64,000 nt of DNA from NCBI GenBank assembly GCA_910578245.1, contig CAJTPC010000001.1, forward strand, positions 91,603-155,602, written 5' to 3'. Origin of the DNA: an uncultured Christensenella sp. Lineage in GTDB: Bacteria; Bacillota; Clostridia; Christensenellales; UBA3700. The translations under genes and the position numbers were made by a program. Positions 46,332 to 64,000 of the stretch are shown one piece after another. The stretch's first letter is position 1. Every line of letters begins with the position of its first letter. The notes under the pieces are model-generated. The model was not told the DNA's origin and did no database searches. It saw only the letters and a list, made by a program, of their open reading frames with translations.

Positions 46332-46904
46332 CTAAATGTCAATTTTGTCCCAACCTTTTATATTCAATTCGTTTTTCAAAATTTCTATTGCGTCATTTTT
46401 CAATCTCCCAACCTGTGTTTTGGAAATACCTAAATCCTTAGCAATCTGTCTAATCGTTTTGTCTTCAAAATATGTTTCCTGAATTATTATCCGTTGCATA
46501 TCTGTTAATTTCATCATTGCAACATTTATATCATTTCTTAATCCTACGACTTCCATCGAATCGTCAGTCTGATAATTATTGACTTTTAAATAATCAACGT
46601 ATGCTATATTATTCCCAACTTGACGATTTAACTTTTTTAATCTGTTTAGCACTTGCCTAGTCATTACTCTACATAAGTAACCATAAGCATTTTTATATAT
46701 TAAAAAACCATTTGCATATTTCTTTATATCATACCAAAAATCTTGAACTAAATCATCTGCCTCACTTTCATTTTTGAGATATTTTAAGGCAATGTATCTG
46801 ATAGTTGGAGACATAAGTTCATAGAGATGTGATATGCTATCATCGTCTCCTTGTCTGACTTTTATCAATAATACATTTAAATATTCTCTTGGCTCTTTAT
46901 CCAT
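46332..46904 (-). CDS. Sigma-70 family (ECF-like) RNA polymerase sigma factor
   Basis: Region 2-like ADDLVQDFWYDI. Region 4 HTH LTDMQRIIIQETYFEDKTIRQIAKDLGISKTQVGRL. Confidence 0.8.
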   Translation of the reverse strand: MDKEPREYLNVLLIKVRQGDDDSISHLYELMSPTIRYIALKYLKNESEADDLVQDFWYDIKKYANGFLIYKNAYGYLCRVMTRQVLNRLKKLNRQVGNNIAYVDYLKVNNYQTDDSMEVVGLRNDINVAMMKLTDMQRIIIQETYFEDKTIRQIAKDLGISKTQVGRLKNDAIEILKNELNIKGWDKIDI

Positions 46905-47164: not shown

Positions 47165-47374
47165 TAGTTTCAAGTCCATATGCACGATAGAAATTATATT
47201 ACACTCCTTACGTAACTTTCTTGACAAAATCTATCGTGAAAACGTTGTTATGTACCACTCAATTAATTCTAAATATCAATAAATAAACTCAAAATGCCAA
47301 TAATTGTCATAAATTTTCTATAATAGAATGAAAAAAGGTCTAAATGTCAGAAGACTTTTAGACCAATACACTTG
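47165..47374. repeat. Direct repeat copy B (~210 bp), right boundary of the island
   Basis: See copy A. It is followed immediately by a 21-nt exact copy of the tRNA-Leu(CAG) 3' end. Confidence 0.8.
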
Positions 47375-47393
47375 GTGCGGATAACAAGATTTG
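47373..47393 (-). repeat. Duplicated 3' terminal 21 nt of tRNA-Leu(CAG) (att-like remnant)
   Basis: TGGTGCGGATAACAAGATTTG is identical to 47501-47521. A degenerate third copy (TGTGTATAAGACGAAATTT) follows repeat A at 41541-41559. Confidence 0.75.
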
Positions 47394-47500: not shown

Positions 47501-47587
47501 TGGTGCGGATAACAAGATTTGAACTTGCACGGCCTTTCGGCCATAAGAACCTGAATCTTACGCGTCTGCCAATTCCGCCATATCCGC
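47501..47587 (-). tRNA. tRNA-Leu (anticodon CAG), class II, CCA encoded
   Basis: The reverse complement is GCGGATATGGCGGAATTGGCAGACGCGTAAGATTCAGGTTCTTATGGCCGAAAGGCCGTGCAAGTTCAAATCTTGTTATCCGCACCA. Anticodon loop TTCAGGT. A hairpin plus T-run follows at 47465-47496 on the minus strand. Confidence 0.9.
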
Positions 47588-47973: not shown

Positions 47974-48258
47974 ATGAGCCAAATAACGCAACCGACAACA
48001 ACTAAGCCGCAAAAATCCTTGAATATCGTATTTGACAGCATAATAGAAATAAATGGGCTAACAGAAATGATAGAAAGCGATGAAAAGCAGGTTATATGCA
48101 ATTTGGGCGATAAATCGCTTATAATTACCGGAGAAAAACTTAAAATAGTCAATCTAGACACGTCTAGAGGCATTTGCTCTTTATCCGGCAGTATTACAGC
48201 GCTAAAATACTCAAAAGGCAAGCAAAAGCTATCATTTTTCAAGAAAATATTCAAATGA
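47974..48258 (+). CDS. yabP: Sporulation protein YabP
   Basis: GGAGA RBS, then ATG at 47974. GDKSLIITGEKLKIVNLDTSRGICSLSGSITALKY matches the YabP beta-rich repeat pattern as I recall it. 4-nt overlap with the next gene. Confidence 0.7.
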   Translation: MSQITQPTTTKPQKSLNIVFDSIIEINGLTEMIESDEKQVICNLGDKSLIITGEKLKIVNLDTSRGICSLSGSITALKYSKGKQKLSFFKKIFK

Positions 48259-48626
48259 TACTCTCCGATACGCTTAATCAGCCTTTAGCATTGGCTATAT
48301 ACACGTCTTTTGGCATAATATTTGGCTTGATATACTCGGTCAATGCTTTTGCTTGCGCATTTTTTGTTAAAAAAGCAATATATAGGCATATATCGCAATG
48401 CTTATACGTTTTACTTTACGGCGCAGTCTTCTTTGTAATTACGTTCACGCAGTTCAATTACGATTTGAAGATTTATCACTTTATAATTTCAGCATTCTTT
48501 ACTGCCTTGACGTCGTTAGCATTATATTTGCTTACAAGAAAGCATCAACGGTCAATAAATGCTAAGTGCGACGCTATTAAAATCAAAATAGCTCAGAGCA
48601 AGATAGTTAAAAAATTTAAGAAGTAA
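48255..48626 (+). CDS. yabQ: Spore cortex protein YabQ-like membrane protein
   Basis: ATGA overlap with yabP. 123 aa with 4 TM segments. Called by position and topology. Confidence 0.55.
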   Translation: MILSDTLNQPLALAIYTSFGIIFGLIYSVNAFACAFFVKKAIYRHISQCLYVLLYGAVFFVITFTQFNYDLKIYHFIISAFFTALTSLALYLLTRKHQRSINAKCDAIKIKIAQSKIVKKFKK

Positions 48627-48648: not shown

Positions 48649-48795
48649 CTAATTAAAATGACGCATCTTACCACCGCAATCACAGGTCTTGCCGTATCTT
48701 ATGATACACTCGCCACAAGTGTAATTGTGACAAACGTCGCAGAAAAAAGCATTTTCATAGTCGACTTGACCTCTGCAAATACTGCATCTAGGCAT
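48649..48795 (-). CDS. Small Cys-rich zinc-ribbon protein (48 aa), below the ORF-track size cut-off
   Basis: AGGAGG lies 5 nt upstream of the ATG. Translation: MPRCSICRGQVDYENAFFCDVCHNYTCGECIIRYGKTCDCGGKMRHFN, with 8 Cys arranged as CxxC, CxxC, CxxC, CxC. Confidence 0.55.
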   Translation of the reverse strand: MPRCSICRGQVDYENAFFCDVCHNYTCGECIIRYGKTCDCGGKMRHFN

Positions 48796-48965
48796 AACAA
48801 CCTCCTAAATCTTAATATTATTAGTATTGCCCAAAGATCACTGTATATTCATGTTAATAATACTGAACGCGTTCAAAATAATTGGCTGATTTTAGCCAAT
48901 TATTTTACTAAAAATAGCAAATTTAGCACAAAATTGCGCTAAATAGTACAGTTTGAATTAATAGT

Positions 48966-48994
48966 AAATGTTTCACAAATATCGTGAAACATTT
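48966..48994. promoter_or_regulatory. Split parS-like palindrome (half-sites separated by 7 nt)
   Basis: AAATGTTTCAC-aaatatc-GTGAAACATTT, with perfect 11-nt arms. Confidence 0.35.
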
Positions 48995-49522
48995 ACCGAA
49001 AAACCAGTGAGAACGAAGATTTTAGATAAATTTGTTCTTGTTTTTACTTAATTATTAGGTATATATTAGAATATATTTGAGTAAAATATGCATATTTAAG
49101 AACATATAATGCTAAAAATTGTTTCACAGGGAACATAACGGAGAAAAATGGACAAACTGCCGAATTCAACTGTGAAACGGCTCAATTTTCCTAATTTTTT
49201 CACAAATTTACACATTTTTGTATTTTAGTAAGACAACACGAATATATATGCCTATGTTACAACTTATGCAATATACAATTTGCAACAAATGCCAAGCAAT
49301 ATTTTATACACAAATCAACTAACACAATACAATTATCTCGTTATATTCACATGACCAGCCGTTTAACCGATATTTATGAAAGCGTTATTTTTAATTTTCT
49401 GTAATAGCAATTATCAACCGGCGTATTGCAAAAGTACTATTTCTTCTCAATGCATTCACAGACTACTTAGAATAGAATCTAAACGGTTTTATTTATGCTT
49501 ATAACTGACGTATAATTTATAA

Positions 49523-49538
49523 TGTTGCACGTGAAACA
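49523..49538. promoter_or_regulatory. parS: parS site (ParB/Spo0J binding site)
   Basis: TGTTGCACGTGAAACA is an exact match to the Bacillus-type consensus TGTTNCACGTGAAACA. Confidence 0.8.
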
Positions 49539-50204
49539 TTATATTTTTAGTTCTTTATTCCCATTGGCAATTTTATTGATTCGCACCAAACATCCCTATC
49601 CGATCCCAATTAATACATTAAAATTAATTTAACATTATATCAGCTTCGATACTTATTTGCTACAACCCAAGATACGGTAGCAATACAAACATTAAAGCCA
49701 CCTTAAGCCATCTAGACCGTCAGGGAAGTCATAACATGGGAAGCTATAACATAATAGCAAACCGCCGCGCAACGATAATATGTTGTGCGACAGACACAAC
49801 GCAACCGCATTTATCGGTAATTTTATAATTAAACAACAAGACAATATAATACGTTTTCATAACGCGAACATATTATCAAGTTATTTGAAAGTAAGGATAT
49901 CTTAAATGCCTAAACATATTATGAAAGACCAGAAAGTATGCAAACGCCTGAGAATCAACTGTTTTGATGCGTTTATTGTATTTATCTAAAGCAGAGCATT
50001 GCGCGCAAGAGCAACGCAAAATAGCGAGCAAAGCCTAGCTTAGCATTATTATTAGCGACAATATGGCTCGCGAACTCCACAACCACCCATTATTACGTTA
50101 ATTTGCAATTTAATCAACCTATCGCACCGGTTTATAATAATGACACCCTATGCGTGGTAACAAATTGATAAATCAACTATATTGAACTTCACCCGTATAT
50201 CATA

Positions 50205-50220
50205 CGTTTCACGTGAAAAT
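50205..50220. promoter_or_regulatory. Degenerate parS-like site
   Basis: CGTTTCACGTGAAAAT has a perfect 12-bp core TTTCACGTGAAA and three mismatches in the outer positions. Confidence 0.4.
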
Positions 50221-51197
50221 GATTTCTAAAACATCCGTTGCAACATCTTATTGCTATTAATCTTAAGTTTGCCACATCTACTGCATTGAAGACAAGCTAA
50301 TCATTCGGTTAGACAAATTTATTCTTAAATCGCAACCAAATGCAATACCTACCGCATTGTTACATTTCCCATTTCCGATTGAGCTACTTATCAACACATA
50401 TATTAAAATTTATTAGAGTATGTCGGCAAACATCTATAGGCAAAGCTAAATTAGACGTGGCATCATGAATTGCAATTTATACTTAAGAACTTGTAAACAT
50501 AATTTATGCCGGAAGCGCTTAACCCGAACAATTATTATGACATTTTCACGCGCAACCTTTGCTCAAAGCCAATAATACGTCTGCAGGCAGTCATTTACTT
50601 GATAAGAATAAAATCAGCGGTGTATACCATTAAAGCCGATTCGATTGGATATTCATCCCCGGACAATCGCTATACTATTTATTGTAGCGTATTGGAACCT
50701 TGATTACTAATATTATAATTAGCCATTCGACAATTTATAGAATCTTTTTAGATTATTTATCCATGAAGCATTAAATTCATTGACTGATATCTCGCTACTG
50801 TGTAATTATACCAAACGTAGGAGTCACATAATCCAATATGACAAAGCATTTAGACTTTATTAACATTGTCGGAATGGCGCGCGCATTTTTTATTATTTTC
50901 TCGACTTATTATTGAAGTTGCCAATATAAATTAGAACGCGAAATCATAAATTAACTTCGAATCACAAAAGAAATAACTTGACTCTACAATTATTACGTTG
51001 TATTCATTTCATTTTATTAATTGCGTTGCGAGGTTATCTTGTATATTCAAAGCTATATTTCTATTTCAAATCGCTTTGACTTCTGTAAAAATCAAATTAA
51101 ATTACGCCATCTATAAATTATTCACTCCTTATTAATTACTTCAAATTACGAGATAGAGTAACTACGCAATTATAAAAACCAATGGACATAAACGCAA

Positions 51198-51213
51198 TGT
51201 TACACGTGAAACA
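51198..51213. promoter_or_regulatory. parS: parS site (ParB/Spo0J binding site)
   Basis: TGTTACACGTGAAACA is an exact match to TGTTNCACGTGAAACA. Confidence 0.8.
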
Positions 51214-51922
51214 TGGTATTTTTTTGAGTTTTGCTATTTTAGCACTTTTGACACATAATACTGCATAAAGAAGTCGGCATTACGATCTGATTGGTTAGTG
51301 TATTGCAAAAAACCATCTAGTAGCAACATTTTTAAGTCTAGTTATGCTCATTAGTGATAATTATCTCTAACAAAAAAAATTATTTATTGCCTTATATTCA
51401 AAAGAATAGTAACTCATACTATTAATCGAATAGTAAACACCTTGCTTTTATTGGGCAAATCTGTCAAGCGTTGCCATTGGGCATAACAAAAAATATAAGT
51501 AGGCGAACCAACACGCTCTCATTAGACCGTATTATTTCTTTTTATGCAATTCTCTAATAATCACGCCATTTTACAGCCAGAGTATTGACATTATATTTTT
51601 AGGGTACCATTATTTCAATGACTGCATGTATAACGCTTTTGCAATCTAAAATGATATGATTTTTTAGTTGCGAATAGTTCCTTGTGTAATTTTGCATATT
51701 CTGTAGTACAATATAGCAGAATTTTGGCTATACTTTGTCTGTACTTCTATATTTCGGCTGTTTTTTGATTATTATTTATAATAATCAAAGTGGATTTTCT
51801 AGTGATTTTCTCATTGAATAATGATATAAAATACCTATTTTTACAACAAGACATGAGTATCCTACTTTAACTATGCGCTATATGAATGCGGGCAGGTACA
51901 AAATAAAGTAGTGGCAATTTAC

Positions 51923-51951
51923 TTGACAGTTACTTGCTATTTATTTATAAT
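51923..51951 (+). promoter_or_regulatory. Consensus sigma-A promoter of the rpmH operon
   Basis: TTGACA (51923-51928), 17-nt spacer, TATAAT (51946-51951). Confidence 0.75.
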
Positions 51952-51995
51952 AATAAAGCGTAATTATTTTTTTATATAAAAAGGAGACAATAGAT

Positions 51996-52130
51996 ATGAA
52001 ACAGACGTATCAACCCAAGAAAAGACAAAGATCAAAGGTTCACGGCTTCCGTGAAAGAATGCGTTCAAAGAGCGGTAGAAACGTAATTAAGAGACGTCGC
52101 AATAAGGGCAGAAAGCAACTCACCGCTTAA
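51996..52130 (+). CDS. rpmH: 50S ribosomal protein L34
   Basis: Not in the ORF track (44 aa). AAGGAGA RBS. Translation: [44 protein letters not shown]. Confidence 0.95.
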
Positions 52131-52136
52131 TAGAGT

Positions 52137-52544
52137 ATGCAAAAAAAGTACAGGCTGAAAAACGGCAGAGTATTTAGATATCTGCGCTTAAAAGGGCAAA
52201 GCAACGCCAACAAAATGCTTGTACTTGTCCACGCCCCTTCCAAGTTCCCTTTGAAGGTGGGTTTTATCGTAAGCAAAAAAGTTGATAACAGAGCAGTTGT
52301 TCGCAACAAGGTCAGACGACGTCTAAGAGAAGCGTTTAGGGCAATGATTCCGTATCTTAAGGACAACGTAAATTATATTGTCATCGCAAGAGAAGTATGC
52401 GGCGAAGCGAATTTTGAGGAACTGACAAACAATCTTGCGCATTTGATAATCAAAAGCGACTTATTTGCAAGAAAAATCGACGATGACGTAGTTGAAAGAT
52501 TAAAACTCAAACAGAGCGTATTGGAAAAAGCAAAGTTTGATTGA
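52137..52544 (+). CDS. rnpA: Ribonuclease P protein component
   Basis: Immediately follows rpmH. GFIVSKKVDNRAVVRNKVRRRLREAFR is the RNR motif region. Confidence 0.9.
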   Translation: MQKKYRLKNGRVFRYLRLKGQSNANKMLVLVHAPSKFPLKVGFIVSKKVDNRAVVRNKVRRRLREAFRAMIPYLKDNVNYIVIAREVCGEANFEELTNNLAHLIIKSDLFARKIDDDVVERLKLKQSVLEKAKFD

Positions 52545-52560
52545 GGCGTACGGACGATAA

Positions 52561-52800
52561 ATGAAAAGCGGAAATTTTTTTATTCAATATTATAAGCAAT
52601 TTATCAATCCCGCAGTGGGTGGCAGGTGCAAACATATTCCGTCGTGTTCGGCATATATGGGACAAGCCATAGCCAAAAAAGGATATATCAAAGGCTCTGC
52701 AATGGGCGTAGCTAGGATATTGAGATGCAATCCCTTTTCAAAAGGCGGATATGATCCCGTAAAGGATAATCTTAAAGGAAACGCAAAATGGCTATTATGA
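52561..52800 (+). CDS. yidD: Membrane protein insertion efficiency factor YidD
   Basis: CKHIPSCSAY and the ILRCNPFSKGGYDPV motif. Confidence 0.9.
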   Translation: MKSGNFFIQYYKQFINPAVGGRCKHIPSCSAYMGQAIAKKGYIKGSAMGVARILRCNPFSKGGYDPVKDNLKGNAKWLL

Positions 52801-53972
52801 ATTTTAGTTTGCTTGCTGCGGTTAGTTCTATTTGGAAACCCATCATCAGCTTGCTACATTGGATGAACAGCGGTATCGGCAACTTCGGTTGGACGGTAGT
52901 GGTGTTTTCTATTATGTTGCGCTTATTGCTTTTGCCGTTAGACGTATGGCAGAAGATGATTATGCGCAAACAAAAAGCTAAAATGGACGCAATACGTCCT
53001 CAGCTTGAAAAAATCCAAAAACAATACGCCAATAGACCCGACCTTCTAAGGCAAAAGCAATACGAACTTCAGAAGGGCTCTATGAATATATTTACTTCTT
53101 GCTTGCCAATGATTTTCACGCTTGTGATATTCTACGTGGTATTCCAAGGATTTAGGCAGTATATCGTGCAATACAATCAAGACAAAGTAACCGAACTGTA
53201 CAATATATATCTGCAATTCTTCAAAGACAGTGACAACGTGGAGCAGATTTTGAAAGTCTACAATGAACAACTCGTTGCGGCGGGAAAAACCGCAGTCGAT
53301 ACGTATTTGAGTGGCGATGGATTCATCGAAGGCTTTTTCCCGTCATACGATTATATACGTCAAGCGGGACTTATCGACCAACTTAACGCATCTTTGGTAG
53401 ACAAATATCCTCTTGAAAGTTGGCTTTGGGTCAAAAACGTGTTTATGTCGGATACTTGGGCAAACGTAATACCTAGCCTTGACAACTTCACGTCAACGAA
53501 GTTGGGCGGTATAGGCGCAACCGTTCCGGACATTGCCGGCGTATCGTACGATCAACTTATGAGTCCTATAATCGACAGTTATAACAAGAAAAGTTTTTGG
53601 AATATGAGTAAATGGAACGGTTATTTTATACTTCCGATACTCTCTATTGCGACTAGCTTTTTGTCAACAACGTTGCAACAAAAAATGCAACCTGTACAAG
53701 TTACGGGCGATCAAGCTCAGCAAAAGCAACAACGCATAATGAACAAAATTATGACGTATCTTATGCCACTCATACTCGGCTTCTTTGCGATAATGTACAG
53801 CGCGGCATTTGCAATATACTACTTCGTCAGCAACTTTATGACGATGGCAACTTCTCTCACGTTCAATCTTATTGTAAAGAATATGGACAAGAAAAAAGCA
53901 AATCAGCCTATTATTATTCAAAAAAACACCGACAACAATAACGCTAAAAAGTCTAATAAGACAAAAAGATAA
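52788..53972 (+). CDS. yidC: YidC/Oxa1-family membrane insertase (SpoIIIJ-like)
   Basis: GWTVVVFSIMLRLLLLPL and the MRKQKAKMDAIRPQLEKIQKQY motif. Multi-TM with a basic C-terminal tail. Confidence 0.85.
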   Translation: MAIMNFSLLAAVSSIWKPIISLLHWMNSGIGNFGWTVVVFSIMLRLLLLPLDVWQKMIMRKQKAKMDAIRPQLEKIQKQYANRPDLLRQKQYELQKGSMNIFTSCLPMIFTLVIFYVVFQGFRQYIVQYNQDKVTELYNIYLQFFKDSDNVEQILKVYNEQLVAAGKTAVDTYLSGDGFIEGFFPSYDYIRQAGLIDQLNASLVDKYPLESWLWVKNVFMSDTWANVIPSLDNFTSTKLGGIGATVPDIAGVSYDQLMSPIIDSYNKKSFWNMSKWNGYFILPILSIATSFLSTTLQQKMQPVQVTGDQAQQKQQRIMNKIMTYLMPLILGFFAIMYSAAFAIYYFVSNFMTMATSLTFNLIVKNMDKKKANQPIIIQKNTDNNNAKKSNKTKR

Positions 53973-54043
53973 AATAGGTAAAACTAGATATACGGTTATA
54001 GATTATTAGAAAAAGATACTTTGGTATCTTTGAGGAGAAATAT

Positions 54044-54835
54044 ATGAAAAGTGTAGAAATTACTGCAAACAGCTTTGAAGAGGCGCTCGAGCAAGCTCTT
54101 GAAGAACTTGGTCTTGACAAAAGCCAAGTCGAAGCAGAAAAAGTAAAAGAAACGGGACTAATTCGCAAAAAGATTACCGTAAAAGTGACGCAAAAAGTCA
54201 CCGGAGCTACAATGGTAAGCGATTTTGTCAACGGTATTATTCAAAGAATGAATATCAACTGCGCCGCTGAGGTTGAAGAGAAAGAGGACGCTTTTTATGT
54301 CAATCTTACCGGCGATGATACAGGCGTACTCATTGGATACAGAGGAGATGTCTTGGACGCGCTCCAATACCTTTCGCTTTTGGTGGTCAACAAGAACAAT
54401 CCTGACAACAAAAGACTTGTTATCGACGGCGAAAACTACAGAGAAAAGAGAATCGCAACTCTATCTAAACTTGCTAAAAAGATTGCTTTCAGAGTGGCTA
54501 AATCCCACAAGGCAGAATCACTTGAGCCTATGAATCCATTCGAGAGAAGAATTATTCACTCGGCTTTGCACGACGATAGATTCGTTACGACGGAAAGCCA
54601 TGGGGAAGAACCCAATAGATATATCGTTATCTCTCCCAAAAAGCCTGCTTTCGATAGAGAAAGAGGAGATAGAAGGGGCGACAGAGGAAACAGAGAAAGA
54701 AAAGAAAACCGTCAATCTCAACCAAAGACGGAAAGCCAAGCTGCCGAAAGACAACAGCAAGAAAATCGCAACTTTAATAAAACCGGCGTAACGAGAATGA
54801 AATCTTACGGCGGAGATATGAAGAAATTTTTCTAG
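54044..54835 (+). CDS. khpB: Jag/KhpB RNA-binding protein (Jag-N, KH, R3H)
   Basis: N-terminal Jag-N domain, a KH-like GVLIGYRGDVLDALQYL, and R3H EPMNPFERRIIHSAL. Confidence 0.85.
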   Translation: MKSVEITANSFEEALEQALEELGLDKSQVEAEKVKETGLIRKKITVKVTQKVTGATMVSDFVNGIIQRMNINCAAEVEEKEDAFYVNLTGDDTGVLIGYRGDVLDALQYLSLLVVNKNNPDNKRLVIDGENYREKRIATLSKLAKKIAFRVAKSHKAESLEPMNPFERRIIHSALHDDRFVTTESHGEEPNRYIVISPKKPAFDRERGDRRGDRGNRERKENRQSQPKTESQAAERQQQENRNFNKTGVTRMKSYGGDMKKFF

Positions 54836-56037: not shown

Positions 56038-57366
56038 TTATTTCCCTAAGCAGAATTTACTGAATATAGTATCAATGATATCCTCGCTTGCAGTATTACC
56101 TGTAATAACTCCAAGCGTAAAATATGCCTCTCTCAAGTCTATCAAGCTACATTCGGTGGGTAGAGCAGAGTAGCTTAATTTAGCGCTCTTAAGGCTTGAA
56201 ATAGCCTGTCGTATTGCTTGCGCGTGACGCTCGTTGGTGATAATATTGCCATTGGTATCCACGCTTGAATCTATAAAAGTATTTATTATTTGCTTTTTAA
56301 GTTGGTCAATACCTACGTTGTTTTTTGCGCTTATTTTTATACCTTTACGATTATCTTGCGCCGTATCGCACTTATTTATAACCAATAGTACTTTGTTGTT
56401 ACTGTCAAAACTCTTTATTAGATTATTTTCGTATTCGTTGAGTTGCCGTCCGGCTTCGGTGACAAACAAGACTATATCGCTGCCTTTTGCGACCTGAATA
56501 CTTCTCTCCACGCCCAATGCTTCCACTATATCGCCTGTTTCGCGTATGCCAGCGGTATCTACGAGTTTGAGCATAACTCCGTCTACTTCGACGTATTCCT
56601 CCAAGCTATCTCGGGTAGTGCCTGCAATATTTGTTACGATAGCCCTATCCTTGCCGATGAATGCGTTGAGTAGAGATGACTTTCCGACGTTGGCTTGACC
56701 TACGATTGCTACGCTGATACCTTGACGGATATATCCGCCTACCTTTGCGGTAGAATTGAGTTTTTCTAAGTGTGTTATTAAATCGTCTGTAGTCTTATTA
56801 GCGTTGGACTTTGCTTCCTCTTCCATTTCTTCGGGATAGTCCAGGCTAGCTTCAAGTTCGGATATACAATCGAGAAGCGTATTTTGTAAGGCAAGTATTT
56901 GCTTGGCAATATCTCCCGTGGAAAGTCTATAACTTGCGTTGAGAGACGCTACGCTCTCGCTGTTTATCATATCGATTATGCCTTCGGCGTCGCTCAAAGC
57001 TATCTTACCGTTGAGAAAAGCGCGCTTGGTAAATTCCCCTTTGTCGGCAATCTCGCAACCGTGTCTTAGACAAGCCTTGAGAACCTCGTCAATCAATCTC
57101 ATACCGCCGTGGCATTGAAATTCAACTATATCTTCGCCTGTGTAGGAATGAGGAGCTTTGAAGTATACCGCCAAAATATTGTCCTTAAATACTCCTACGT
57201 CAATACTGCCGTAATACATATAGTTGGGCTGAGCGTCCTTAAAACTTGCAAGTTTTTTGCAAGTAAAAATAGACGATGCAATCTCTAATGCTTTATCTCC
57301 GCTCATTCTAACAATGGCTATTGCTCCGCGTCCTACGGGAGTTGAAATAGTGGCTATGGTTTTCAT
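56038..57366 (-). CDS. mnmE: tRNA modification GTPase MnmE
   Basis: G1 GQANVGKSSLLN, G3 DTAGIRE, NKCD, and the C-terminal FCLGK. Confidence 0.9.
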   Translation of the reverse strand: MKTIATISTPVGRGAIAIVRMSGDKALEIASSIFTCKKLASFKDAQPNYMYYGSIDVGVFKDNILAVYFKAPHSYTGEDIVEFQCHGGMRLIDEVLKACLRHGCEIADKGEFTKRAFLNGKIALSDAEGIIDMINSESVASLNASYRLSTGDIAKQILALQNTLLDCISELEASLDYPEEMEEEAKSNANKTTDDLITHLEKLNSTAKVGGYIRQGISVAIVGQANVGKSSLLNAFIGKDRAIVTNIAGTTRDSLEEYVEVDGVMLKLVDTAGIRETGDIVEALGVERSIQVAKGSDIVLFVTEAGRQLNEYENNLIKSFDSNNKVLLVINKCDTAQDNRKGIKISAKNNVGIDQLKKQIINTFIDSSVDTNGNIITNERHAQAIRQAISSLKSAKLSYSALPTECSLIDLREAYFTLGVITGNTASEDIIDTIFSKFCLGK

Positions 57367-57631: not shown

Positions 57632-59488
57632 ATGCAAAAGAATTATGACGCTATAGTAATAGGTTGCGGACACGCGGGAGTTGAGGCATGTCTTGCTTTA
57701 GCGCGCCTCGGACACAAGACTTTGGCGGTAACTTTATCTCTTGACGCAATAGCCTTTATGGCTTGCAATCCTGCGATTGGCGGTACAGCAAAGGGACATC
57801 TGGTGAGAGAAATAGACGCGCTTGGCGGACAGATGGGAATATCTGCCGACAATAATTTACTTCAAATTCGTATGCTCAACATGGGTAAAGGATCGGCGGT
57901 ACAGTCACTTCGCGGACAAGCCGACAAAACTCTTTATCACCACTATATGAAGAATATTATGGAGACTACGCCCAACTTGGATATTTTGCAGGGCGAAGTA
58001 GCCGAGATACTTACTAAAAACGGTACCGTATACGGAATAACAACAACCTTGGGACAGACTTTTTATGCAGACAGCATAGTAGTAGCTACGGGAGTATATC
58101 TCAATGCGCATATCATTATAGGCGACAACGTAACCAAGACGGGTCCAAACGGCTTTTCAAGAGCTACAAAACTCACCGACAGCTTGATAAGTCTTGATAT
58201 TCCTACTAGAAGATTCAAGACGGGCACTCCTGCAAGAGTGGATAAAAACAGCATAAATTTCGACGTAATGCAAATACAGAACGGCGATGATAATATATAT
58301 CCCTTTTCCTTTATGACAAAAGGATACATACCCAATAAAGAGGTATGCTATCTCACTTATACCACACAAAAGACAAAAGATATTATTATGGCAAATATCG
58401 ATAGATCTCCGCTCTATAACGGTTCTATACACAGCATAGGACCGAGATACTGTCCGTCTATTGAGGACAAAGTCATGAGATTTGCCGATAAAGAACGTCA
58501 TCAAATCTTTATTGAACCTGAGAGTAGTCTGACTAACGAAATGTACGTGCAAGGCATGAGTTCGTCTTTGCCTTTCGACGTGCAACTTGAGATGTATAAA
58601 TCGGTAATAGGCTTGGAAAACGTCAAGATTATGAGATTTGCTTATGCAATAGAGTATGACTGCATAGACTCGCTTTGTCTGACGCCGTATCTTATGGTAA
58701 AACACGTCAAAGGTCTTTTCTTAGCGGGACAGCTCAACGGCAGCAGCGGATACGAAGAAGCGGCGGCGCAAGGTCTTATTGCCGGCATAAACGCTTCGCT
58801 ATATCTAAAACAAAAACAGCCTTTGGTATTGACGAGAGATTCGTCGTATATTGGCGTACTTATAGACGACTTGGTAACTAAAGGCACCAACGAACCTTAT
58901 AGAATGATGACGGCTAGAGCGGAACATAGACTGCTATTACGACAGGAAAACGCCGACAGACGACTTACTCCGATTGGTAGGGAAATAGGCTTGGTAAACG
59001 ACGAAAGGTGGCAATCTTTTGAAAAGAAGATGCAGACTATTGAAGATATATCTAATATCTTAAATAAGTCTTTACCTCCCAAAGAATTCAGGCAGTTTTT
59101 TGAAAATATCGGCGAGCCTGTACCAAACAACGCTCTAACTTATAAAGATATGCTTAAACGAGCAAACGTATCTTTTGATATGCTTATGCAAAACTTTGAA
59201 GATCTTAAAGACATAGATAGAAGATGTCTTGAAGAAGTAGCTACGTCTATCAAATACGAAGGCTATCTCAACAAACAGCAGGCTGTCATTGAAGATATAA
59301 ACAAACTTGAAAATAAGTCGCTTCCGCAAGACATAGATTATAGCCAAATAAAAGGTCTGAGAATCGAGGCCAGACAAAAACTCGACAAAATAAAACCTCT
59401 CAACTTAGGTCAGGCTTCGAGAATAAGCGGAGTATCACCGGCGGATATAACGGTGCTTTTAGTGTATATTTCCAAGACGGGTAGGTAA
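57632..59488 (+). CDS. mnmG: tRNA uridine 5-carboxymethylaminomethyl modification enzyme MnmG (GidA)
   Basis: FAD motif YDAIVIGCGHAGVEA. Also GPRYCPSIEDK and GQLNGSSGYEEAAAQG. Confidence 0.95.
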   Translation: MQKNYDAIVIGCGHAGVEACLALARLGHKTLAVTLSLDAIAFMACNPAIGGTAKGHLVREIDALGGQMGISADNNLLQIRMLNMGKGSAVQSLRGQADKTLYHHYMKNIMETTPNLDILQGEVAEILTKNGTVYGITTTLGQTFYADSIVVATGVYLNAHIIIGDNVTKTGPNGFSRATKLTDSLISLDIPTRRFKTGTPARVDKNSINFDVMQIQNGDDNIYPFSFMTKGYIPNKEVCYLTYTTQKTKDIIMANIDRSPLYNGSIHSIGPRYCPSIEDKVMRFADKERHQIFIEPESSLTNEMYVQGMSSSLPFDVQLEMYKSVIGLENVKIMRFAYAIEYDCIDSLCLTPYLMVKHVKGLFLAGQLNGSSGYEEAAAQGLIAGINASLYLKQKQPLVLTRDSSYIGVLIDDLVTKGTNEPYRMMTARAEHRLLLRQENADRRLTPIGREIGLVNDERWQSFEKKMQTIEDISNILNKSLPPKEFRQFFENIGEPVPNNALTYKDMLKRANVSFDMLMQNFEDLKDIDRRCLEEVATSIKYEGYLNKQQAVIEDINKLENKSLPQDIDYSQIKGLRIEARQKLDKIKPLNLGQASRISGVSPADITVLLVYISKTGR

Positions 59489-59490
59489 TT

Positions 59491-60210
59491 ATGGAACTGA
59501 ATATTCTTAAAGATTATTTGTTAAATAATTATAAAAATTCTTGCGAAAACAGTGATATTTCACTTTACTTGACTAAATTCTCACTTTATTACGATAAATT
59601 GATAGAGTGGAACTGCAAATTTAATCTTACGGCAATAACTCAATCTGACGACGCGCAAATAAAGCACTTTATTGACAGTATATTGCCCAACAATTTGCTT
59701 GATAAAAGCAATAATATTTGCGATATAGGTTGCGGAGCAGGCTTTCCCAGTATTCCTTTAGCAATTCTCAATCCCGACAAAAAGTTTACTTTGGTTGACA
59801 GCGTAAATAAGAAGATAACCTTTATTAATTATATCATAGAATTGCTTGATTTACAAAACGTAACTGCAATACATTCAAGAGTAGAGGACTTTGCCAAAAG
59901 TAATTTCCAAAGTTTTGACGCATGCGTAGCAAGAGCCTTAGCAAGCATGCCTACGCTTGTGGAATATACTTTACCTCTTATCAAAAAAGACGGCTTTTTA
60001 TTTGCATATAAGGGTATAAATTATAAGGAAGAATTAGAACAATGTTCAAAAATTCTCCGTATTCTAAACGGAAAATTGCAAAGAGTAGAGCAATATGATT
60101 TGACAGAAGAAGAAAAAAGATACGTGCTGGCAATACAAAAAATGGGAGATTGCCCAAAAAAATATCCGAGAATTGGCAATAAACCTAGACTACAACCTAT
60201 ATTAGGATAA
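59491..60210 (+). CDS. rsmG: 16S rRNA (guanine527-N7)-methyltransferase RsmG (GidB)
   Basis: ICDIGCGAGFPSIPLAI SAM motif. Position after mnmG. 239 aa. Confidence 0.85.
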   Translation: MELNILKDYLLNNYKNSCENSDISLYLTKFSLYYDKLIEWNCKFNLTAITQSDDAQIKHFIDSILPNNLLDKSNNICDIGCGAGFPSIPLAILNPDKKFTLVDSVNKKITFINYIIELLDLQNVTAIHSRVEDFAKSNFQSFDACVARALASMPTLVEYTLPLIKKDGFLFAYKGINYKEELEQCSKILRILNGKLQRVEQYDLTEEEKRYVLAIQKMGDCPKKYPRIGNKPRLQPILG

Positions 60211-60286: not shown

Positions 60287-61159
60287 ATGAAAAATAATTT
60301 TGATAAGAATTTGGACATAGACAGCGATTTTACTACCTACGATAAAAACGGTAATCTAAACGAAGGCGTAGAAATAATGCCTTTGGAAAGCATAGTTCCC
60401 AATCCTAATCAACCGAGAAAAAAATTTGACGAAAGTTTGCTTGAAGAACTTGCTGTTTCTATAAAGAACTACGGAATTATACAACCTATCATAGTTTGTC
60501 CTGCAGGCGGTGGAAAATATCAAATCGTAGCGGGCGAGAGAAGATACAGAGCTAGTAAACTCGCCGGTATAGCTACTATTCCTGTCATCAAAAAATACTA
60601 TACGGAAAAACAAATTAAAGAGATTTCTCTTATAGAGAATCTTCAACGTCAAGACCTCAATCCTATCGAAGAAGCTCAAGCGTATAAGGCATTGATTGAC
60701 GAATATGATTTCACTCAAGAACAACTTGCAGATAAATTGGGCAAATCGCGTCCAGTAATTACAAATTCTTTAAGACTTCTCACTCTCAATCCGGTCGTAA
60801 TAGATATGGTTGTCAACGGCAGAATATCGGCAGGTCACGCAAGATGTCTTACTTCTATAAAGGACTACGTAGTACAACACACCTATGCTTTGGCTTGTTG
60901 TGATAAACAACTTAGCGTAAGACAGTTGGAACTCATGGTTCGCAATTATCTTAAGACCGATCCTAACGACCCCGAGCGTAAAAAGAAAGAGATTCCTGAA
61001 TTGACGGTCGAACTAAAAGATTTGGCAAATATAATGCAAAGAAAATTCGGTACTAAGGTAAATGCAGTCGGAAATAACAATAAGGGTAGAATATATATCG
61101 ATTATTATTCCACTGCCGATTTAGATAGAATTTACGAGATACTTGAAAAAATAAATTAA
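60287..61159 (+). CDS. parB: ParB/Spo0J/Noc-family partition protein; no parA next to it
   Basis: IVPNPNQPRKKFDE, GIIQPIIV, the GERRYRASKLAG box and an HTH TQEQLADKLGKSRPVITNSLRL. Confidence 0.85.
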   Translation: MKNNFDKNLDIDSDFTTYDKNGNLNEGVEIMPLESIVPNPNQPRKKFDESLLEELAVSIKNYGIIQPIIVCPAGGGKYQIVAGERRYRASKLAGIATIPVIKKYYTEKQIKEISLIENLQRQDLNPIEEAQAYKALIDEYDFTQEQLADKLGKSRPVITNSLRLLTLNPVVIDMVVNGRISAGHARCLTSIKDYVVQHTYALACCDKQLSVRQLELMVRNYLKTDPNDPERKKKEIPELTVELKDLANIMQRKFGTKVNAVGNNNKGRIYIDYYSTADLDRIYEILEKIN

Positions 61160-61273: not shown

Positions 61274-62470
61274 ATGAAAAAATTTTTCGCTGTTTTAACG
61301 GTTTTAATATGCGCAATTCTCTGCTCATTAGGACTTGTAGCCTGCAATACGGACGAGGATGAACTTGTTGAGGTTAAGGGAATTACACTTGACGTAACTG
61401 AATTAACGCTTAAAGAAGGCGAATATTATGCATTAACTGCTACAGTAACACCGTCAAACGCAAGCAATCAGGAAATTGAATGGTTGACGTCGAATGATAG
61501 AGTAGCAACGGTGGATAACGGTAACGTCGTAGCCGTAGCGGAAGGTAAGGCAATTATATCCGTAACTACAAACAACGGCAAAACTGCGTCGTGTACCGTG
61601 ACGGTTGAAGCGGAGATGGAAGAATCGCCTGTTAAATGTACCGTTACTCTATATGCAAATGGCGGAGTTTTTGAGGGAGGAAGCGAAACTTACGAAATGC
61701 AGGTGAACCACGGTGATAGGCTGAGCGGTGATTTAACCGTGACTAGAGGAGATAAGTATGTCTTCACAAACTGGTATACAGACGAAAACCGCACAAATTT
61801 ATGGGACTTAGACGAGGATATTGTAACAGAGGATATAGAACTTTTCGCAGGTTGGAAATATTTGAATAAATATCAGTCAGTTATCGACTCTCTTGAAGAG
61901 AGAATTAAAGCCCAATTGCAAGATAATAGCGCAGATGTCGAAATTCTGTCCTTATTCAAGGATAAAGATGGATATCTTTGCTTTGTCGAAAAAAACGGCA
62001 AAGACGTGTTTTCGTATAAGACTGACATTTACGGTTTTGACGAAATAGTAGGCGACGCAGATATTATTTTACAAATTTCTAATACTACTTTAACACAGCT
62101 TAAAACTTACAATGATAAATATACGTCTGAAAATAATTCCTATGTTGCGGATAATATGGCTTATAAATATACGTCGGCGTTAAACGCAAACGACGCTATA
62201 ATATACAGTTGCGTTTCCGAATGGAAATTGTATTCAGAGGATGATTTTTCTACCAACGGTCCTTGGTATGGCTGTCAAATAAAAGCTATTATAGTAGACG
62301 AAAACGGTAATGTTTTTGATTGCAGTTTTACGGTAGTTGCGCCAATTGCTTATTATAGTTTAGTTATCGGCGGGTCTGTGTTGAGTGAAGCGGTCGACTT
62401 AATTATGATAGAATTGGGTGAAATTTCAAACGATTTTTATTCAGAGTATATCAAATCACAACAAGCTTAA
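61274..62470 (+). CDS. Lipoprotein with a Big_2 Ig-like domain and an InlB B-type repeat
   Basis: Lipobox LGLVAC. Big_2-like ITLDVTELTLKEGEYYALTATVTPSNASNQEIEWLTSNDRVATV. Also YVFTNWYTDE...ELFAGWK. Confidence 0.7.
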   Translation: MKKFFAVLTVLICAILCSLGLVACNTDEDELVEVKGITLDVTELTLKEGEYYALTATVTPSNASNQEIEWLTSNDRVATVDNGNVVAVAEGKAIISVTTNNGKTASCTVTVEAEMEESPVKCTVTLYANGGVFEGGSETYEMQVNHGDRLSGDLTVTRGDKYVFTNWYTDENRTNLWDLDEDIVTEDIELFAGWKYLNKYQSVIDSLEERIKAQLQDNSADVEILSLFKDKDGYLCFVEKNGKDVFSYKTDIYGFDEIVGDADIILQISNTTLTQLKTYNDKYTSENNSYVADNMAYKYTSALNANDAIIYSCVSEWKLYSEDDFSTNGPWYGCQIKAIIVDENGNVFDCSFTVVAPIAYYSLVIGGSVLSEAVDLIMIELGEISNDFYSEYIKSQQA

Positions 62471-62622: not shown

Positions 62623-63729
62623 TTATCTCGTTCTTATCGGCAAAATAAGATATAAATATTCATTACTTTCAATAGGGGTAATAACCACAGGATTACTGCT
62701 ATTGGATATTTTGATAGATATATATTCGTCACTGCTGTTTTTAATGCAATCGGTGAGATATTTAGCGCTAAGACTAATAGTTACGTCTTTACCTTTAGTA
62801 AAAGTATTTATTACTTCTTTTATATTACTCATACTGGTATTGCAATAAATAGACATCTTACCTTCTTTTATATCTATCTTAATATAATTGCTCTTATCTT
62901 GCTTAGCTATTACGTCAACTTTATCCATACTGTATTCAAGACTTGCTCTATCTACTGTTACTTCAGTCTCAAAATTCTTAGGAATAGTAGACTCATATTT
63001 TATAAAACTTCCGCCTATTAGAGAAGTAACAATCTTGCTATTTTCAAATTCAACCATCATTTTCTTGTCGTTGAATTTAATATTTACCGTTTCTTCATCA
63101 TTTTCTAAGAGTTTAGAAATCTCGCTTAAGCTCTTTGCCGGAACTATTATGCTCGATTCTTTTTGTTCTTCAGCAAGTTCCTTATTGCAAATTGCAAGTC
63201 TGTAGCCGTCAAGACCTACGCTTCTTATTTGATTTCCTTTTATTTCAAGCAAACAACCTTTAAGCTGTTGTCTAATATCTTCGGTAGACGTAGCGAATAT
63301 AGTCTTATTTACAAGGTCTTTGAAATCCTTTTGTTTAACAGAAAGGGAAGTGATATATTCTTGATCCTCGATAGCGGGATATTCGCTTATATTCATGGTT
63401 GCTATATAAATAAAGCTGTCGCAGTGAGAAATATATAGCTTGTCCGCTTCTATTTGAGAATCGAATTCTATTATATTTTCCTTACTTATTTTTCTTATAT
63501 ATTCGCAAATAGTTCTTCCCGGAACTAGTACTTCTCCTTCCATAATTATATCAGCTTTTATTTTCATTACGATAACAAACTCAATATCTGTTGCCATTAT
63601 CGTCAAAGTATCGCCGAAAGCGCTAAATTTAATGCTCTCTAATATAGGCATACTCTTTTTTGAAGGAAGAGCCTTCATTACTTTTGATAAAGCGTCTGAC
63701 AAATCCGTTCCGTTGCAAATAAACTTCAT
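62623..63729 (-). CDS. dnaN: DNA polymerase III beta sliding clamp
   Basis: MKFICNGTDLSDALSKV...LPILESIKF N-terminus. 368 aa three-domain layout. C-terminal LILPIRTR. Confidence 0.9.
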   Translation of the reverse strand: MKFICNGTDLSDALSKVMKALPSKKSMPILESIKFSAFGDTLTIMATDIEFVIVMKIKADIIMEGEVLVPGRTICEYIRKISKENIIEFDSQIEADKLYISHCDSFIYIATMNISEYPAIEDQEYITSLSVKQKDFKDLVNKTIFATSTEDIRQQLKGCLLEIKGNQIRSVGLDGYRLAICNKELAEEQKESSIIVPAKSLSEISKLLENDEETVNIKFNDKKMMVEFENSKIVTSLIGGSFIKYESTIPKNFETEVTVDRASLEYSMDKVDVIAKQDKSNYIKIDIKEGKMSIYCNTSMSNIKEVINTFTKGKDVTISLSAKYLTDCIKNSSDEYISIKISNSSNPVVITPIESNEYLYLILPIRTR

Positions 63730-63801
63730 TTATACACCTCTGTAAATTATATATTTTTTATATTTATTAGATAATCATAATATCAATAAGGGGAGTGGAA
63801 A

Positions 63802-63901
63802 TGTTGATAAGTTATTTAATAGACCTATAATCAATAAAAATTGAGAATTTTATGTTTATAAGTATGTTGATAAATAATTTTAGTTTTCCACATTGTCCAC
63901 A
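63802..63901. promoter_or_regulatory. DnaA-box cluster upstream of dnaN (oriC segment in the presumed dnaA-dnaN spacer)
   Basis: TGTTGATAA occurs at 63802-63810 and 63865-63873, TTTTCCACA at 63884-63892 and TTGTCCACA at 63893-63901. Each differs by one mismatch from TTATCCACA or its complement. A very AT-rich stretch follows to the window end. Confidence 0.7.
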
Positions 63902-64000
63902 AAAAGATATTTTTATTTATCTATTATGTCAATCGGTTATATATTTTTTATTATAAGCAGTTATTTTTTGCTTATAATTATCTTTTTTGAATCATATTTT

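Follow-up and report, generated by a model that had tools for sequence, protein, structure and literature searches.

A 3.2-kb tract without genes, found in the DNA of an uncultured Christensenella sp., is probably an origin-proximal centromere, i.e. a dedicated gene-free platform of putative ParB-binding (parS) sites. The tract occupies positions 48796–51995 of a 64-kb stretch of DNA (contig CAJTPC010000001.1 of assembly GCA_910578245.1, positions 91,603 to 155,602), termed here the window, and lies between a 48-amino-acid (aa) Cys-rich open reading frame (ORF) and rpmH. A centromere that serves ParB binding and SMC loading is the simplest account of the tract, because the only signature that appears to be under purifying selection is that of parS, because a ParB of the parS type is encoded nearby, and because the tract is near the replication origin (oriC). 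An earlier note on this DNA, made from the sequence alone, had offered a dedicated centromere and ParB/SMC-loading platform as one of its explanations. That proposal is supported by the conservation of the sites, by the gene for a parS-type ParB 8 kb away and by oriC 12 kb away.

The window was joined to a contig of GCA_949535765.1 (L055), which was found by a look-up of the dnaN product and is 100% identical to the window over an 11.4-kb overlap. The sequence covered totals 73.7 kb.

parS sites and homologous tracts

Two exact matches to the 16-bp consensus TGTTNCACGTGAAACA are present in the tract, at 49523–49538 (parS C, TGTTGCACGTGAAACA) and at 51198–51213 (parS D, TGTTACACGTGAAACA). All matches with up to two mismatches in the 64 kb are inside the tract, where 0.13 would be expected by chance. 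When up to three mismatches are allowed, the 73.7 kb contain four sites, and again all are in the tract; these include the near-matches at 49120 and 50205. In addition, seven of the nine GTTTCAC heptamers of the window are found there.

A yidC-based scan with one genome per species provided 54 loci for comparison, mostly labelled Christensenellaceae, Christensenella or uncultured Clostridia. The order yabP–yabQ–small ORF–gap–rpmH is present in 17 loci (window included), with gaps of 2296–5087 bp. These gaps are ORF-poor, have a GC content below that of their own loci, and carry two or three parS-like sites each. Matches with up to two mismatches outside the gaps were found only once in the loci of about 20 kb, in L002. 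Four sites, termed A, B, C and D, follow each other in identical order across the 17 loci, and the spacing between parS C and D is 0.75–1.7 kb (at least 749 bp). Unbiased k-mer counts single out the same sequences: AATGTTTCAC, an arm of site A, occurs 42 times in 57 kb of gaps and not at all in 262 kb of flanks, and GTGAAAC occurs 96 times in the 17 gaps against 7.4 expected. As an observation on the gaps in general, the AA/TT dinucleotide periodicity at about 9.75–10.25 bp is raised in the 17 pooled gaps (z of 5–7 relative to locally shuffled sequence), a figure that pertains to these gaps only.

Site A (48964–48996) has the form AATGTTTCAC, 7 bp (AAAAnYC), GTGAAACATT, with 13-bp perfect inverted arms. 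It consists of the two parS arms pulled 7 bp apart by an A-rich spacer, and the arms are invariant in the 17 loci. Approximately 100 bp to its left is the palindrome (C/T)TGAACnnGTTCAA (TGAACnnGTTCA) at 48863–48876, the sole match to this motif in the window. Its GAAC..GTTC bases are invariant in the 17 loci, and its distance is constant to site A, not to the adjacent gene. Site B (49120–49135) consists of TGTTTCAC and a degenerate right half (AGGGAACA); a distal half-site GTGAAAC at 49172–49178, 51 bp on, extends it to 49120–49178 and gives a split of 44 bp. The TGTTTCAC half is invariant, and 15 of the 17 loci have an A–B distance of 151 or 152 bp. Immediately left of site B are two AT-rich palindromes, AGAA-N9-TTCT, at 49066–49113. 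The AG at 49099–49100 and the CT at 49112–49113 are invariant in the 17 loci; as a general motif, AGAA-N9-TTCT is not enriched in the window.

The earlier note had pointed out both exact Bacillus-type sites at their correct positions, as well as two split versions of parS. Both of the latter are real (48969–48991 with a 7-bp spacer, and 49120–49135 paired with the GTGAAAC at 49172). It also reported a site with a perfect 12-bp core at 50205–50220 (CGTTTCACGTGAAAAT). This site is present and invariant in eight assemblies of the same species, but is missing from the closest other species (L001) and from all others, and is thus species-specific.

Other motifs accompany the canonical sites. A flank motif, TTATTCCCATTGGCAATT (TTATTCCCATTGG), is on the plus strand at 49555–49572, 16 bp right of parS C, and is a conserved block in the clade of the window. 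The same motif, inverted, is present as CCAATGGACATAAAC (reverse complement GTTTATGTCCATTGG) on the minus strand at 51179–51193, 4 bp left of parS D. This motif, TTAT[TG][CT]CCATTGG, stands just inside both canonical parS sites in inverted orientation, such that C...D forms a large inverted pair with the flanks facing inward. A 24-bp palindrome, TTGATTATTATTTATAATAATCAA, at 51765–51788 is another conserved block in the clade; it is situated about 135 bp upstream of the rpmH –35 hexamer. The rpmH promoter itself, TTGACA-17-TATAAT (51923–51951, plus strand), matches the consensus at 12 of 12 positions and is followed by a leader and the ATG at 51996. The segment 51901–51995, with promoter and leader, contains conserved blocks and is 100% identical to that of L001.

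Two other identities for these motifs were looked at. Site A as a Rex or CRP-type operator was rejected by eye, as the orientation of the half-sites is the reverse. A Spo0A-box-like TGTCGAA stands beside site B in distant loci, and it shows no enrichment in the 17 gaps.

Properties of the gene-free tract

There is no ORF of 66 aa or more in 48796–51995. The sole ORF of at least 60 aa (50506–50703) has no Shine–Dalgarno (SD)-like motif, and at the matching position L001 has no ORF of at least 60 aa. The tract is also the longest run without an ORF of at least 90 aa in the 73.7 kb (3194 bp), the next being 1202 and 993 bp. Its GC content is 0.31 compared with 0.38 for the window, and a base tally of 49201–51600 gives 449 C, 325 G and 32% GC. 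Tandem or dispersed repeats are absent from the tract except for the parS copies, and terminator-like hairpins amount to three weak ones, with 1.8 expected.

The description in the earlier note agrees well with these data. It had depicted a 3.2-kb ORF-free and AT-rich tract, with a single ORF of 60 aa or more that has no ribosome-binding site, and with C over G (about 449 versus 328, right to within three bases) at about 32% GC. It had seen no DnaA-box cluster, tandem array, RNA family or obvious terminator, and none of these is found in the tract. Its placement of the tract between yabQ and rpmH is correct on the rpmH side, but on the yabQ side the 48-aa Cys-rich ORF intervenes.

Eight conspecific assemblies from different samples carry the tract, with 3171–3209 bp between rpmH and the small ORF and 97.8–99.4% pairwise identity over aligned regions of 5.9 kb. 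A gene caller finds no gene in the tract of these assemblies except for one 40-aa call. The window comes from a metagenome-assembled genome, and AT-rich regions can misassemble, which raises the question of an assembly artefact or chimeric join. This is refuted by the eight independent assemblies, and the architecture is common to the loci of the other species and to many metagenome contigs; the chance of an artefact is negligible.

Selection on islands and spacer

Conservation was assessed as identity between the window and L001, and as nucleotide diversity among the eight conspecific assemblies. The parS C site with 30 bp on either side has an identity of 0.92 and a within-species diversity of 0.000; for parS D with the same margins the values are 0.91 and 0.003, for the A–B module 0.86 and 0.0175, and for the rpmH promoter 1.00 and 0.003. 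The bulk of the tract has an identity of only 0.74–0.75 and a diversity of 0.025–0.029 (0.0165 from D to rpmH). By comparison, the third codon positions of six flanking genes have identities of 0.81–0.98 (0.98 in rpmH), with 0.81–0.94 as the range set against the parS and bulk values, the tRNA–yabP spacer has 0.90, and most flanking genes show a within-species diversity of 0.004–0.012. Within the species, the 16-bp parS sites and the half-site arms of A are invariant, and one base of the site A spacer varies among the eight assemblies. The GC-rich pair L076/L066 displays the same contrast of islands versus spacer.

By these measures, purifying selection is apparently restricted to the islands. 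The spacer seems to be at least neutral, because its bulk diverges faster than third codon positions, and it possibly evolves faster than neutral; yet its presence and multi-kb size persist.

Conservation in more distant relatives

The full tract aligns end to end by blastn only with that of the closest species, L001 (75.7% identity), where the yidC protein is 97% identical. In species more distant than L001, only islands can be aligned by blastn. Site A is also found in a more distant group (L022, L025, L027, L028 and L037; yidC about 49% identical), where a B-like site follows. A pattern scan for site A gave 25 metagenome contigs and no viral contigs. In the stretches fetched from these 25 contigs, rpmH is present in 13, only yabP or the small ORF in four, and none of the tested genes in eight. 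The exact site A pattern occurs once per locus in all 53 loci that have it.

One clade has an inverted tract, with site A nearest rpmH, and shows three to five full or near-full parS sites over about 2–2.7 kb; its 3–4-kb stretch is without ORFs of at least 80 aa except for a few of 80–145 aa. A lineage with 50% GC has the same arrangement, and the GC content of its spacer equals that of the contig; AT-richness is therefore not a required property. In all, more than 25 related Christensenellales genomes and metagenome contigs retain a gene-free tract of 2.3–5 kb adjacent to rpmH. The comparison with related genomes, which the earlier note had proposed, thus shows a tract that is kept as an architecture in the 17 loci and in further clades, and that is kept in sequence only at islands.

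Search for coding remnants and mobile DNA

A different explanation is that functional parS sites reside in unselected leftover DNA, at a rearrangement junction or in an insertion-and-decay zone whose size reflects the balance of insertion versus slow deletion. Several properties fit such an origin: the bulk has many indels and a divergence above that of third codon positions, the gaps range in length from 2.3 to 5.1 kb, and spacer GC tracks genome GC. The gap holds an additional gene in some relatives: L018 and L026 have an FAD oxidoreductase there, and more remote loci have genes of the LRR or FtsX type. The order of rpmH, dnaA and dnaN is rearranged relative to Bacillus, and a tRNA-linked variable region is present 1.3 kb left of the tract.

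No remnants of decayed genes are seen, in searches that did not extend to a general protein database. Comparisons among the gaps by tblastx give matches in all six frames, at DNA islands only and with no coding remnant, and a six-frame Pfam scan of the tract finds no families. When the extra genes of some relatives were used in tblastn searches, no trace of the L018/L026 FAD oxidoreductase was present in other gaps. Small ORFs were screened for an SD-like motif and for being intact in L001, which left a single ORF of 26 aa (49148–49228); it is lost in L002 and L003, and no SD-bearing small ORF is kept beyond the closest relative. Mobile DNA is not evident either: a plasmid blastn search with the tract gave no match, the tract has no transposase or integrase, and site A is absent from the viral contigs scanned.

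All 17 species and further clades, a GC-rich one among them, maintain an ORF-poor tract that measures at least 2.3 kb and has no fewer than 749 bp between C and D. Bacterial genomes have a deletion bias, under which leftover DNA of this size would hardly be expected to persist. Since the tract is retained in all lineages that were examined, the concept of tolerated junk loses weight, and leftover DNA is an unlikely source of the tract. The proposal of decayed DNA at a rearrangement junction, another of the explanations in the earlier note, likewise is not supported in the form given, in view of the lack of coding remnants in any frame and of a gene-free tract kept across an order-level clade.

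Search for RNA signatures

The tract might also be the locus of a large non-coding RNA or of several small RNAs. There are 34 promoter-like hexamers in the tract against 20.9 expected, and left of parS D the excess of C over G and of A over T is like that seen in genes transcribed from the minus strand. Fold z-scores were obtained for 78 windows on both strands. Only 48796–49115 stands out, as it folds far better than shuffled sequences (z down to –8.5), but the mean of all windows is –0.43 and the very stable hairpins at 48876–49035 are species-specific: the same segment in 16 homologs has z-scores from –6.7 to +1.2. A small RNA or leader around site A was considered and dropped, since the homologs are inconsistently structured and show no covariation.

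Searches of Rfam, with its large non-coding RNAs such as OLE, GOLLD and ROOL in mind, gave no match of any family at the gathering threshold, and at E ≤ 10 only chance-level matches with E-values of 2–8. The structures predicted by RNAalifold are limited to the invariant palindromes and have a covariation term of +0.05; a covariation test of homologous tracts was among the checks that the earlier note had suggested. In addition, the bulk of the tract cannot be aligned beyond close relatives and evolves faster than third codon positions. The large non-coding RNA of the earlier note thus finds no backing, and RNA genes in the tract are very improbable. Invariant arms that are identical to parS arms point to protein–DNA recognition, not RNA pairing, as the probable reason for conservation.

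The cognate ParB and the origin of replication

The gene for ParB (60287–61159, plus strand) is 8 kb from the tract. Its product has the Pfam domains ParB_N, HTH_ParB and ParB_C, and a GERRYRA motif that corresponds to the GERRxRA of the CTP-binding N-terminal domain; the best match in the Protein Data Bank (PDB) is B. subtilis Spo0J (6SDK). Four positions are known to switch specificity between parS and the Noc site (PMC7383237). At these positions the protein has R173, S179, T184 and G201, which is the parS type, while Noc has Q, K, K and R.

The probable unwinding region of oriC is outside the tract, in the dnaA–dnaN spacer (63730–63978, minus strand). It contains the only DnaA-box cluster in the 73.7 kb, with four boxes in 100 bp (63802–63901), followed by a GC-rich block and an AT-rich run. 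The cluster is separated from parS D by 12.5 kb. Upstream of dnaA, the start of which is 78 bp from the divergent recF, a second cluster would not fit.

Could the tract itself be part of the origin system, whether as the distal half (or a remnant) of a bipartite oriC or as a DnaA-box/ParB region that controls initiation? In canonical Firmicutes, the dnaA-side half of oriC sits upstream of rpmH, as does the tract. The cumulative GC skew of the window is lowest near 51.6–52 kb, but it is flat from 52 to about 65 kb and therefore cannot place the origin. Left of parS D, the plus strand is C- and A-rich in 16 of the 17 loci, and this bias is gone to the right of D; hence the strand skew changes at parS D in most loci. 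DnaA boxes stand beside parS C in five species and beside site A in another lineage. For B. subtilis, genetic interaction of DnaA-box clusters near oriC with spo0J has been described (PMC3245932).

The tract in the window has no more than two isolated one-mismatch DnaA boxes in 3.2 kb, and no cluster. The sole clear cluster, with its GC block and AT-rich run, is that of the dnaA–dnaN spacer, and in relatives no common GC-cluster or AT-rich pattern follows the boxes. A role of the tract as part of the replication origin is accordingly improbable, even more so than leftover DNA. The tract may descend from the rpmH-side half of an ancestral origin, or still communicate with it.

The arrangement of the boxes in relatives deserves separate mention. 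In L012, L013, L017, L018 and L026, parS C is framed by a pair of DnaA boxes that stand 117 bp apart and match the consensus fully or with one mismatch. L070, L082 and L085 have three DnaA boxes in tandem about 28 bp from their site A and 0.4 kb upstream of rpmH.

A proposed centromere platform

With the tract as an origin-proximal centromere, the following model can be envisaged. ParB dimers would nucleate on the canonical sites C (49523) and D (51198), and probably also on the species-specific site at 50205. ParB would then bind CTP, close into sliding clamps and spread over the surrounding DNA. The resulting ParB domain would load SMC-ScpAB and, at 12 kb from oriC, tag the origin region for segregation. 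The A–B module (48863–49178), with its half-sites 7 bp and 44 bp apart and its palindromes, most likely would hold ParB or a partner without clamp loading, and might in this way anchor or delimit the platform at one end. In the fast-evolving spacer of 2–5 kb, length and lack of genes would be what is kept, not the sequence. The spacer may provide a zone free of transcription for ParB, and may shield rpmH and other neighbours when ParB spreads. The data themselves show the presence, conservation and order of the sites, the lack of coding or RNA signal, the type of ParB and the position of oriC. That ParB occupies the tract and SMC is loaded there, what sites A and B do and whether the spacer has a selective value are what we infer from the pattern of sites and its conservation; the spacer would presumably be maintained for the accumulation of ParB clamps or for the protection of neighbouring promoters.

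With its palindromes, its flank motifs and the constant splits of 7 bp and 44 bp, the region is more elaborate than a set of parS sites. A broader concept, which is possible and is put forward tentatively, is that of a 'regional' centromere. Here a multi-kb, fast-evolving and transcription-free spacer, the length of which would be selected across the order, would combine with parS, split half-sites and, in some lineages, DnaA boxes to build a ParB/SMC domain, possibly together with DnaA, and site A would be a non-loading anchor or boundary.

A number of points weigh against the centromere model in its simple form. No parA was detected beside parB, in the 73.7 kb, or in the loci of the clade by tblastn with an approximate B. 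subtilis Soj query; parA-like matches to this query come only from the distant L033 and L034, and weakly from L038. Active segregation driven by ParA is accordingly a conjecture. ParA, it should be added, is not needed for a site to be parS, and pneumococci lack it. The DnaA boxes beside parS-type sites in relatives, together with the skew switch at D, hint at a link to replication that goes beyond a simple centromere. The analysis covers 74 kb of the genome, and further parS sites may be present elsewhere. Canonical ParB function needs only 16-bp sites and tolerates surrounding genes, as in B. subtilis; for this reason a centromere alone does not explain kilobases of spacer. Lastly, the 7-bp insertion places the arms of site A on different faces of the helix, so that a ParB dimer may be unable to bind there in the ordinary way and the site may serve another protein.

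Gene neighbourhood

Left of the tract are genes for an ECF sigma factor (46332–46904, minus strand) and tRNA-Leu (47501–47587, minus strand; anticodon cag), followed by yabP (47974–48258, plus strand), an ORF at the yabQ position (48255–48626, plus strand) that has no family match, and the 48-aa Cys-rich, zinc-ribbon-like ORF (48649–48795, minus strand). The latter always flanks the tract in the clade of the window. Its product has no Pfam family, and only three clusters of it are found in a database of 5.8 billion proteins.

Right of the tract, rpmH (51996–52130) and rnpA, yidD, yidC and jag (52137–54835) are on the plus strand, and mnmE (56038–57366) is inverted, on the minus strand. Next are mnmG and rsmG (57632–60210), parB and the gene for a Big_2-domain protein (61274–62470), all on the plus strand, and dnaN (62623–63729) on the minus strand. 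The extension to 73.7 kb adds dnaA on the minus strand, and then recF, an acetyltransferase gene, gyrB and gyrA. This order of the origin region is uncommon: the plus strand carries rpmH to parB, the minus strand dnaN and dnaA, and a divergent recF-gyrB-gyrA block stands only 78 bp from dnaA. The order from rpmH to parB, with dnaN on the minus strand, is kept in the clade of the window. The earlier note was thus right to call the neighbours of rpmH non-canonical, as the gene order around rpmH, dnaA and dnaN departs from that of Bacillus.

Two local peculiarities were also observed. The 3′ end of tRNA-Leu(cag) has a 21-bp direct repeat at 47373–47393, 128 bp away, and the intervening piece is missing in L001. 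Beyond the tRNA, the eight conspecific assemblies differ: they carry either an ECF-sigma block, or an ABC transporter, or an rve transposase together with genes for OLD-TOPRIM and UvrD; the region looks like a tRNA-linked integration hotspot. In addition, yidD (52561–52787) has a within-species diversity of 0.031, which is as high as that of the non-coding spacer and several-fold above that of its neighbours.

Significance and comparison with known systems

The centromeres of bacterial chromosomes are commonly viewed as isolated sites of 16 bp that function irrespective of location, even within genes. Here an order-level clade keeps together gene-free and fast-evolving kilobases around parS, ordered accessory motifs and a fixed, non-canonical spacing of half-sites. 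Should the spacer and split sites matter, it would follow that the loading of ParB clamps, their spreading or the loading of SMC can be influenced by the DNA context around them, and the tract would be a natural system in which to study the limits of ParB domains and their coexistence with transcription. Should they prove irrelevant, the origin region and centromere are nonetheless clearly marked by the tract. Such a marker can be used to annotate Christensenellales metagenome-assembled genomes, where dnaA does not adjoin rpmH. In the open-access literature, nothing was found on Christensenellales, on gene-free parS platforms or on split parS sites. Studies of other bacteria describe parS clusters, half-site binding and ParB spreading (PMC4368675, PMC5961200, PMC4488948).

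The system shares with Spo0J/parS of B. subtilis the 16-bp consensus, the origin-proximal location, and a ParB with GERRxRA and the parS-type residues. The parS sites of B. subtilis, however, are spread over a large origin domain and are mostly inside genes, whereas all sites seen here are packed in one conserved gene-free tract, with split half-site modules and flank motifs. The oriC-proximal DnaA-box clusters of B. subtilis offer another parallel, as DnaA boxes flank parS-type sites upstream of rpmH in some relatives; the tract of the window differs in that it has no DnaA-box cluster.

Plasmid centromeres, such as sopC of F and parS of P1, are also non-coding and multi-site, and some mix box types and sites for accessory proteins (see also the review PMC5002424). 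They are compact, with lengths of tens to hundreds of bp, and are often tandem; in the window there are five to six sites over 2–3 kb of non-repetitive spacer.

S. pneumoniae likewise has origin-proximal parS, and the lack of ParA in pneumococci is paralleled by the failure to find parA near parB here. Pneumococcal sites are among genes; here, a multi-kb buffer is present between the sites and their neighbours. Pneumococcal ParB is reported to bind four origin-proximal parS sites and to spread from one of them into adjacent DNA (PMC4488948).

P. aeruginosa (parS1–4), C. glutamicum and Caulobacter are alike in that several parS sites within a few kb near oriC form one ParB domain (PMC4368675; see also PMC7083940). 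ChIP-seq with P. aeruginosa shows that ParB binds single parS arms in vivo, including GTTTCAC, and that these half-sites are scattered over the genome and are mostly intragenic (PMC5961200). In contrast, the half-sites described here are in a fixed geometry (splits of 7 bp and 44 bp, 151 bp apart), are confined to the tract and are conserved across the order. The sites themselves thus appear to be ordinary, and it is the dedicated gene-free platform with split half-sites, kept across an order of gut Clostridia, that would represent a new element.

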